5,233 bases of DNA, taken from a virus (taxonomy: Duplodnaviria > Heunggongvirae > Uroviricota > Caudoviricetes). Made by a program: the position numbers and the translations under genes. Shown in pieces: positions 3,717 through 4,797 of the stretch (position 1 is its first letter; every line of letters begins with the position of its first letter). Location of the stretch: IMG/VR virus record IMGVR_UViG_2660238548_000009, one strand, 5' to 3'. The notes beneath the pieces were generated by a model that was given only the letters and a program-made list of their open reading frames with translations, made no database searches and was not told the DNA's origin.

Positions 3717-3731
3717 CCAAACGTCTCTTCA
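3717..3731. repeat. 15-bp direct repeat, copy 1 (ccaaacgtctcttca), downstream of the 113-aa gene
   Basis: Exact 15-nt match to 4088..4102. On the minus strand it reads TGAAGAGACGTTTGG followed by ATGA, i.e. a copy of the cI C-terminal codons EETFG plus an in-frame stop. Confidence 0.9.
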
Positions 3732-3732
3732 C

Positions 3733-4074
3733 TCATCCGAAGAAGCAGCAATCCGGGTCAGCACGCACAAGCTCAAGCGCATCAGTCAGCGAAAGTTCAG
3801 TACTGTACTGATGCCATTTCATATCCTTCCGCATCCAATAGATTTTCCATCTATCCAGAGAACGTATGTACTTGATTCTTGCTGATGGCAGGATGTTTGT
3901 TTCACCTGGGTTGCCCTGCCACACGGGGCGCTGTTCGCCGATATCTATCGTTTGGTCATTGATGCTATAAACAATATCCAGTTCATTGCGGATATGTTCA
4001 GGCGGCCTTATGCTTTCAATGAATTGGTGAACTTCTTTTTTGACCGCTTGATATTCAAGGTCAGTGAACGCCAT
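3733..4074 (-). CDS. Hypothetical 113-aa protein, first gene downstream of cI (occupies the rexA position)
   Basis: ORF-track ORF. ATG 4074..4072 lies 9 nt after the cI stop with a strong SD GAGGAGGA (complement of 4078..4085) inside the cI 3' end. W/Y-rich (WKIYWMRKDMKWHQY), ends in CCFFG. No motif I can assign. Confidence 0.7.
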   Translation of the reverse strand: MAFTDLEYQAVKKEVHQFIESIRPPEHIRNELDIVYSINDQTIDIGEQRPVWQGNPGETNILPSARIKYIRSLDRWKIYWMRKDMKWHQYSTELSLTDALELVRADPDCCFFG

Positions 4075-4083
4075 CTATCCTCC

Positions 4084-4797
4084 TCACCCAAACGTCTCTT
4101 CAGGCCACTGGCTGGCGATAACTTTCCCCACAACGGAACAACTCTCATTGCATGGGATCATTGGGTATTGTGGGTTTAGTGGCTGTAGAAACACCTGACC
4201 GCTATCCCTGATCAGTTTCTTGAAGGTAAACTCATCACCCCCAAGTCTGGCTATGCAGAAATCACCTGGCTCAACAGCCTGCTCAGGGTCAACAAGAATT
4301 AACATCCCGTCAGGAAAACTGGGTTTGGAACCTGTTGGTGCGGTCATTGAGTTACCTTCAACCTCAAGCCAAAATGCAGAATCACTGGCTTTTTTGGTTG
4401 TGCTTACCCATCTCTCCGCATCACCTTTGGTAAAGGTTCTAAGCTCAGGCGAGAACATCCCGGCCTGAACATGAGAAAAAACAGGGTACTCATACTCACT
4501 TCTAAGTGACGGCTGCATACTAACCGCTTCATACATCTCGTAGATTTCTCTGGCGATTGAAGGGCTAAATTCTTCAACGCTAACGTTGAGAATTTTTGCA
4601 AGCAATGCTGCGTTATAAGCATTTAATGCATTGATGCCATTAAATAAAGCACCAACACCTGACTGCCCCATCCCCATCTTGTCTGCGACAGATTCTTGGG
4701 ATAAGCCAAGCTCATTTTTCTTTTTTTCATAAATAGCTTTAAGGCGACGTGCGTCCTCAAGCTGCTCTTGTGTTAACGGTTTCTTTTTTGCGCTCAT
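4084..4797 (-). CDS. cI: cI repressor, lambda-type (237 aa)
   Basis: Product [54 protein letters not shown]...[10 protein letters not shown] is near-identical to lambda CI as recalled (a few substitutions such as T3A). Helix-turn-helix [21 protein letters not shown] is intact, and the Ala-Gly cleavage site and Ser/Lys of the C-terminal domain are present. Leaderless start at the PRM +1. Confidence 0.95.
4088..4102. repeat. 15-bp direct repeat, copy 2 (ccaaacgtctcttca), inside the cI 3' end
   Basis: Exact match to 3717..3731; encodes cI residues ...EETFG on the minus strand. Confidence 0.9.

Follow-up and report, generated by a model that had tools for sequence, protein, structure and literature searches.

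A duplicated repressor-gene tail brackets a DUF3024 cassette in a lambdoid immunity region

In lambdoid phages, the region between the repressor gene cI and the gene N is a known hotspot of mosaicism and of morons (PMC8585504 and PMC7067206, citing Degnan et al. 2007). This cI-to-N slot is occupied by rexAB in phage lambda, by bstA in the Salmonella phage BTP1, and by stk in phage 933W, in each case behind the repressor gene, on the same strand, and bounded by a terminator before OL/PL, and the genes found in it are accessory or defence genes that are expressed in the lysogen. The junctions of lambdoid modules reportedly coincide with short conserved boundary or linker sequences, an idea associated with the modular theory of Susskind and Botstein and with the work of Clark et al. 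2001 on HK620. Lambdoid “flanking, short and conserved sequences” are also mentioned in PMC2327257, where they are an accepted route to mosaicism. Here we examine a 5,233-nt stretch of DNA from a virus of the Caudoviricetes (IMG/VR record IMGVR_UViG_2660238548_000009; hereafter the window), in which an exact 15-nt repeat, CCAAACGTCTCTTCA, forms the end of a lambda-type cI gene and recurs on the far side of a 113-aa gene of the DUF3024 family. We conclude that this repeat is very probably a recombination scar, with copy 1 being the functional 3' end of cI and copy 2 the stranded tail of another lambda-type repressor gene.

Read leftwards, the window is an immunity region of lambdoid type, and its cargo lies where the described systems would place it, on the repressor strand between the repressor gene and the terminator/OL-PL-N segment. 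Compared with rexAB, the cargo here is a stack of a DUF3024 gene, a 153-aa gene, stk, and a 54-aa gene, with an internal relic of a repressor tail marking the join of two units. This relic resembles the lambdoid boundary sequences in that about 25-30 nt are common to unrelated neighbours, lie exactly at breaks of identity, and are present even when non-coding; it differs from them in that a gene's coding end makes up the linker, with one copy on each side of a single cassette. We found no published description of this duplicated tail, but it is an ordinary recombination scar of mosaic lambdoid phages and not a new or engineered type of element.

The two 15-mers lie at 3717-3731 and 4088-4102 (plus strand) and are the only ones in the window, where a search allowing up to two mismatches recovered no further copy. 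Two copies appeared in none of 200 dinucleotide-preserving shuffles, and by simple arithmetic about 0.013 exact 15-mer direct repeats of any kind would be expected by chance in 5.2 kb. In a repeat search the two copies lengthen to 19 nt that differ at a single position (3713-3731 and 4084-4102, TCA[T/C]CCAAACGTCTCTTCA), including the TGA stop in both copies, at a period of 371 bp. Copy 1 (4084-4102, minus strand) is the live end of cI: its exact 15-mer at 4088-4102 supplies the codons EETFG, then come the end of the GGG codon and TGA, and the minus strand reads CCT GAA GAG ACG TTT GGG TGA at the end of the 237-aa open reading frame (ORF). Copy 2 (3713-3731, minus strand) is a non-coding relic of a repressor-gene 3' end, GAA GAG ACG TTT GGA TGA, and starts 1 nt past the stop of the 113-aa ORF (3733-4074). 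An earlier sequence-only reading of the window had both positions, the EETFG at the cI end, the 1-nt spacing, and the reconstructed GGA TGA correct. The two relics measure 28 nt (4084-4111) and 43 nt (3689-3731). Copy 2 drifts in sequence among relatives, and it is part of a mini-ORF, ATG AGT GAA GAG ACG TTT GGA TGA, that overlaps the stop of the DUF3024 gene. An Rfam scan gave no match in or near the repeat.

Comparison of relatives with and without the DUF3024 gene shows that the gene and one tail copy form a discrete 371-bp unit. The filled locus L120 and the empty locus L189 differ by a single 371-bp gap, with a right flank identical at 713 of 715 positions, an unrelated left flank, and a break of identity at the 15-mer. 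The repressor of L189 is different but intact, and its last 15 nt, stop (GGATGA), and following TGGATGGTCGCAG… match the relic region of L120 without a difference, so copy 2 is demonstrably a repressor-gene end. Copy 2 is likewise identical to the end of the live repressor gene in L008, where an intact lambda-type cI ends in TTTGGATGA (GGATGA) and continues into TGAAAGGTCGCACAGAAGTGCGGCC and U7, a proper terminator. In a further pair, L028 (lambda cI, DUF3024, relic, and a module labelled D3) aligns with L010 (lambda cI directly followed by D3) across a single gap of exactly 371 bp, and the sequences flanking the gap are nearly identical left and right. In the E. coli prophage L006, whose repressor is a different one, a diverged relic, GCCTGATTAGACATTTGGGTGA, is followed by a hairpin, the 153-aa gene, and stk, all without DUF3024, and homology to the window begins inside copy 2. 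Presence/absence polymorphism among close relatives was thus found in L028/L010, L120/L189, and L006. The sequence-only reading had proposed that the 113-aa gene, with its own Shine-Dalgarno sequence, is a discrete cassette, that copy 2 is an orphan repressor 3' end, and that relatives would show breakpoints at the repeat; the exact 371-bp, repeat-bounded difference between filled and empty alleles, the live counterparts of copy 2 in L189 (the same 15 nt and ATGA) and L008, and the breakpoints in L028/L010 and L120/L189 agree with all three proposals.

The same reading had suggested that the kinase module once directly abutted a cI gene, and this has held only in part. L006 provides the arrangement of relic, hairpin, 153-aa gene, and kinase gene without the 113-aa gene, but the module's own junction lies past the hairpin (about 3689-3691 in the window) and not at the repeat. 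We also built a synthetic empty-site query by joining window positions 3400-3731 to 4103-4450 and searched it in 5,426 E. coli genomes; there was no full-length match in one piece among them, and hence no intact cI directly abutting the 153-aa and kinase genes. Many intact lambda-type cI genes do run in one piece into the 25-43 nt that follow copy 2.

Phage 933W, with an immunity region in the order cI, L0084/DUF3024, L0083, stk, and tM, is 99-100% identical to the window from the 54-aa gene through copy 1, and both 15-mers and the hairpin are present in it. There both tail copies are orphaned; the window differs in having a lambda-type OL and a lambda-type cI whose live end is copy 1. Homology between 933W and the window passes copy 1 as far as 4111 and stops 21 nt short of the stop of 933W's own, unrelated cI, and the 933W family carries a 28-nt orphan lambda-type cI tail (…CAGTGGCCTGAAGAGACGTTTGGGTAA; 3485-3512 in the 933W locus L001) before DUF3024 and copy 2 behind it. 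As 933W carries both copies, the duplication is no recent event in this window. It had been placed by the sequence-only reading at a junction with a pre-existing kinase module, but it is instead old, with DUF3024 and the relic preceding at least six modules. A 933W-type flank, TAACCAGTGGCC, is joined to many different cargo modules.

We examined 71 loci with close DUF3024 relatives, and the lambda-type cI tail stands upstream of the gene in all of them, either live or orphaned behind repressors of the 933W type, the SH2026 type, or the P22-like c2 type. Downstream, the E. coli loci have a “G” and the relic, and at least six continuations follow: the 153-aa gene and stk (31 loci), an SH2026-type module (17 loci), an L010-type module (12 loci), an L003-type module that starts directly at the relic stop, a ParA-like module in ST160, and the phi330/YYZ-2008 type, which has a diverged relic and a true terminator. 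These modules join past the relic stop, inside the hairpin, or past the hairpin. That the left edge of the relic stays constant among E. coli phages favours a single founding event, with re-partnering afterwards. In phi330 (L002, 3040-3390), YYZ-2008, Stx2 II, and 1717-type phages, the segment from the hairpin through DUF3024 into the 3' part of cI is about 86-88% identical to the window, and the DUF3024 coding sequence is unannotated in phi330 and several other records, where the gene may have decayed or just been overlooked in annotation. Among species-representative genomes, a scan returned only two distant DUF3024 homologues (41-45%), single genes in non-phage contexts: one in a Phycisphaerae metagenome-assembled genome (MAG; L197, 2405-2758) and one in a Gammaproteobacteria MAG (L198, 2108-2455), of which one lies beside an IS3-type transposase and the other beside a Phd/ParE toxin-antitoxin pair. 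Neither bears on the repeat.

The tail itself is found far beyond DUF3024 loci. Scanning IMG/VR for the exact 15-mer gave at least 124 matches in at least 120 loci, and all IMG/VR tail counts given here hold among the matches listed. Nearly all copies have (C)AGTGGCC (codons Q-W-P) before the 15-mer and a single base and a stop after it, with several repressor types or non-coding DNA lying upstream and at least 44 different continuations downstream. In 67 cases the tail ends an intact ORF of at least 150 codons, 38 copies (38/112, about a third) are orphans, and 6 follow DUF3024; at least ten continuation types occur after both live and orphan tails, including lambda's rexA-side sequence. The cI gene of phage 434 has only its last 42 nt in common with the window, at 93% identity, and orphan lambda-type tails stand behind unrelated repressors of the 933W type, the SH2026 type, the P22-like c2 type (ST160), and the XRE type (L006 and L131). 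Orphan-copy variants are mostly of a synonymous type in the old cI frame, and some orphans have decayed (phi330, ST160, and L006). As a junction between repressor genes and lysogeny cargo, the cI tail is widespread and conserved. Whether the 15-mer recurs at other module junctions had been posed as a check on the sequence-only reading, and with at least 44 continuations it does; the motif is widespread yet tied to junctions.

We propose the following route to the present arrangement. Copy 2 would be the last 15-19 nt, the stop, and the terminator stem of a second lambda-type repressor gene. In a founding step, which we infer, a unit consisting of a repressor tail, a Shine-Dalgarno sequence, and DUF3024 would have been joined about 15-18 nt before the stop of that second repressor gene by illegitimate or unequal crossover, a join that would have duplicated the repressor tail around the DUF3024 gene. 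From then on, the 371-bp unit has travelled as portable cargo in the cI-to-N slot. The upstream cI tail (28 nt in 933W) and the downstream relic and hairpin (43 nt) would offer short homology to phages with the same repressor end, and ordinary phage or host recombination could add, remove, or re-partner the cassette. That the unit moves as a cassette is shown by the filled and empty alleles and by the abrupt breaks of identity at the tail. The minimal pairing segments are 23-27 bp for Red-beta and 31-34 bp for RecA (PMC3945230), and tail and relic lengths of 28 and 43 nt fit the use of homology because they are close to these values. In the window, the whole cargo block (54-aa gene, stk, 153-aa gene, and DUF3024) is of the 933W type and is flanked by a lambda-type cI and a lambda-type OL, with its right junction in the cI tail (4103-4111).

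The polarity of these events could be the reverse of the one we propose, with the two-copy state being old and the empty alleles being secondary products of recombination between tail copies, in which case they would offer no evidence on insertion. A direct repeat of 15-19 nt at a distance of 371 bp is a substrate for short-homology deletion, the product would be the same as the junctions of the L189 or L006 type, and a relic behind a different repressor, as in L006, is expected from deletion in a 933W-like arrangement. However, such a history leaves unexplained how a repressor tail came to lie downstream of DUF3024, and intact repressors of several types, each with its own downstream module, end in the same tail without DUF3024 (67 intact copies and 44 continuations among the matches listed). 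With so many intact single-tail repressors, the single copy is the general state. Moreover, 4 of the 18 nt beside the repeat are not the same in L010 as in the filled allele, and we regard deletion as an unlikely account of the locus as a whole. A transposase or site-specific recombinase that favoured a target site in the cI tail and duplicated it while inserting the DUF3024 cassette would also place a direct repeat on both sides of an inserted segment, here at a constant position right behind the lambda-type repressor tail, and a second small cassette (in L131 and others) is bracketed likewise. Against this, neither the 371-bp unit, in which DUF3024 is the sole ORF, nor the sequence adjoining it contains a transposase, integrase, or terminal inverted repeat, and the repeat is a recognizable piece of the neighbouring gene. 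Its length is not fixed: the window has 15-19 nt and L131 has 25 nt, and the ST160 copy is longer and shifted. The downstream junctions fall at differing points (past the stop, in the hairpin, or past the hairpin). A length of 15-25 bp is also long for a duplication made by transposition. The probability of this origin is very small in our estimate, and the site-specific event that the sequence-only reading had allowed for finds no recombinase and no constant repeat length among the relatives.

The 15-mer might instead be kept as a functional cis-element, acting in RNA processing or translation coupling or, like the aba element of BstA, as a self-immunity site in the DNA; the defence gene bstA also adjoins cI, and a DNA element lies at the 5' end of that gene (PMC8585504). 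The window, 933W, and many relatives have both copies without a mismatch, most orphan-copy variants are synonymous in the old cI frame, and the mini-ORF overlaps the DUF3024 stop, all of which would suit such a role. In the phi330/YYZ-2008 type, however, copy 2 has about 7 mismatches in 15 positions while the DUF3024 gene is about 86-88% identical and the hairpin is kept, and ST160 has a diverged copy and lacks the mini-ORF. For copy 1, the need to encode EETFG is constraint enough, and recombination with live cI alleles would account equally well for variants of the synonymous type, leaving a cis-element quite improbable. Chance similarity or a laboratory construct has a negligible probability: although lambda cI is a common cloning part, none of the 200 shuffles held two copies, the same arrangement occurs at 97-99% identity in several IMG/VR contigs and in nine complete E. 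coli chromosomes whose sources were cattle, humans, and the environment, both junctions are found in natural Shiga toxin (Stx) phages, and there is no vector sequence. The engineered origin that the sequence-only reading had left open is excluded by these occurrences.

Several points also weigh against the recombination-scar interpretation that we prefer. The four differences among the 18 nt adjoining the repeat in L010 imply that L028 and L010 are related by a crossover in short GTCGCnGAGATGC homology, rather than by a clean indel or excision, and for any single empty allele, insertion cannot be told from deletion. The founding event is not observable, and the illegitimate join is what we infer it to have been. 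The relic in Salmonella phage ST160 is longer, shifted, diverged, and differently bounded, which could be a sign of more than one founding event, and a DUF3024 donor without a downstream relic was not found among close relatives. Finally, co-transcription from the PRM promoter and read-through of the hairpin, both discussed below, are predictions made from sequence.

The hairpin GGUCGCA-GAGA-UGCGGCC (3690-3707, minus strand; -13.8 kcal/mol) lies 3' of the relic and is followed by UGAUUCU, with no U-tract; it was not called as a terminator in the window. The same stem is followed by U6-U7 after the repressor-gene ends of L008 and L175 and after the diverged relic of phi330, and it is kept by compensatory changes (GGUCGC/GCGGCC in the window versus GGCUGC/GCAGCC in L006, 3291-3308). 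The U-tract is missing wherever the module of the 153-aa gene and stk follows. This pattern suggests that a repressor-operon terminator has been turned into a read-through hairpin. The only terminator called on the minus strand is at 1977-1998, no terminator or strong promoter was called between cI and 1998, and a promoter scan found sites no more numerous than in shuffled sequences. The lysogen expression that characterizes cargo of the cI-to-N slot is, for this window, predicted from its sequence: cI, DUF3024, the 153-aa gene, stk, and the 54-aa gene most likely form one PRM-driven, lysogen-expressed operon ending at 1977-1998, as DUF3024 has its own Shine-Dalgarno sequence directly behind cI, no terminator lies between them, and the relic hairpin has no U-tract. 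The proposed five-gene operon would be analogous to cI-rexAB of lambda. A “maintenance promoter/operators” feature annotated within the 153-aa gene in AP004402 resembles a mis-annotation, and we did not use it.

The repressor gene (4084-4797, minus strand) encodes a 237-aa lambda-type cI with Pfam domains HTH_3 and Peptidase_S24 and has 96% nucleotide identity to cI of phage lambda. Directly past its stop begin the Shine-Dalgarno sequence GGAGG (4079-4083) and the spacer ATAG (the element spans 4075-4083, minus strand), which are kept in 71 of 71 DUF3024 loci. The DUF3024 gene itself (3733-4074, minus strand) encodes a protein that matches the full-length Pfam family PF11225 (2.4e-31, residues 4-113), phrog_3467, and the PADLOC profile PDC-S43 (7.2e-42, residues 1-113), the last of which is listed only as a candidate defence gene; a literature search found no mention of DUF3024. 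The 153-aa gene (3204-3665, minus strand) is 99-100% identical to its 933W counterpart and belongs to phrog_3875, annotated as “RuvC-like”, with no Pfam match. The next gene (2164-3210, minus strand) encodes a eukaryote-like protein kinase of 348 aa (Pfam Pkinase, 2.2e-46) and is annotated as stk in 933W, whose Stk has been reported to exclude phage HK97 (PMC3681748). The 54-aa gene (1997-2161, minus strand; phrog_4063), also annotated in 933W, is the last of the cargo block. A search of Protein Data Bank sequences gave a weak match between the DUF3024 protein and AvrPto, a kinase-binding effector (1r5e/2qkw; E = 0.07-0.15), which is of note beside a kinase gene. We take it as probably due to chance, because the single-sequence AlphaFold model is poor (predicted local distance difference test score of 44), the predicted fold is alpha/beta and not all-helical, and the gene is also found without stk.

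At its left border the cargo slot ends in an intrinsic terminator (1977-1998, minus strand; “tM” of 933W) with an 8-bp stem and a T-run. A three-way alignment showed that the terminator region 1965-1998, GAGGCAAAGAAAACCCGGCGCTGAGGCCGGG, is identical in lambda (at the rexB-side end), in 933W (tM), and in the window, with differing adjoining genes, and it seems to border the slot on the left as the cI tail does on the right. Farther left are a lambda-type OL/PL (about 1719-1960) and N (1136-1519, minus strand), and cro (4898-5098, plus strand) lies to the right of cI. Overall, the window is 99-100% identical to 933W at 611-1700 (N and nutL) and 2001-4102 (cargo), and lambda-type at about 1719-1960 (OL/PL) and 4103-5100 (cI, OR, and cro). 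Two lambda-type islands flanking a 933W-type cargo imply that immunity was exchanged as two separate islands while the cargo block stayed unchanged. The crossover interval relative to 933W is 4103-4111, with 99-100% identity on the left (up to 4102) and about 42% on the right, and the match of lambda, HK542, and mEp234 to the window starts only at 4081-4084 and extends to the right. An inverted repeat at 1787-1800/4855-4868 represents OL versus OR. At the left edge of the window, the Rfam family Lambda_thermo, the cIII thermoregulator (34-92, minus strand; 88.5 bits, E = 2.5e-21), marks the start of cIII. At the right edge, an IS600-family (IS3-like) element occupies about 5100-5233 right after the cro stop, where nutR, tR1, and cII would be expected, and a near-identical prophage of E. 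coli LZHX12 matches the window only up to 5107. The prophage of this window is probably defective.

Another mini-cassette, unrelated to DUF3024, was found between tail copies in L131 (7551-7652) and also in L174, L179, L188, L193, and L195 of IMG/VR. It is a 64-nt insert between two copies (in L131, 25 nt exact and 87 bp apart) whose flanks differ across the six loci. Its potential product is a hydrophobic peptide of 15 aa, VVTLLSVVAIVLMVA, terminated by the first TGA of the second tail. L174 has an additional nested repeat, AGAGACGAAGCTGCGGCTGGT, and a relic of the lambda cI-rexA spacer. Because this second, unrelated cassette is also bracketed by tail copies, it hints at a broader idea that we consider speculative and rather doubtful, namely that the tail of about 25 nt, GTGGCCTGAAGAGACGTTTGGNTGA, and the terminator at the other end of the slot are a maintained pair of recombination adaptors for cargo cassettes. 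If this were true, Red-type short-homology recombination would add cassettes (DUF3024, the 15-aa peptide cassette, stk, rexAB, and others) to a stack, remove them from it, and carry them between immunity types, and every stacking would leave a tail copy between cassettes, like an integron array without an integrase.

As it stands, the locus illustrates at base resolution, through matched filled and empty alleles, how lambdoid and Stx phages gain and swap cargo in their repressor operon. Even where the repressor is an unrelated one, as in 933W, the terminal 25-30 nt of lambda-type cI have survived as a junction sequence. For annotation, orphan tails can flag past exchanges, and DUF3024 can be treated as separable from the stk module. 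The arrangement also suggests a simple route by which Stx prophages may change their immunity type or their defence cargo.

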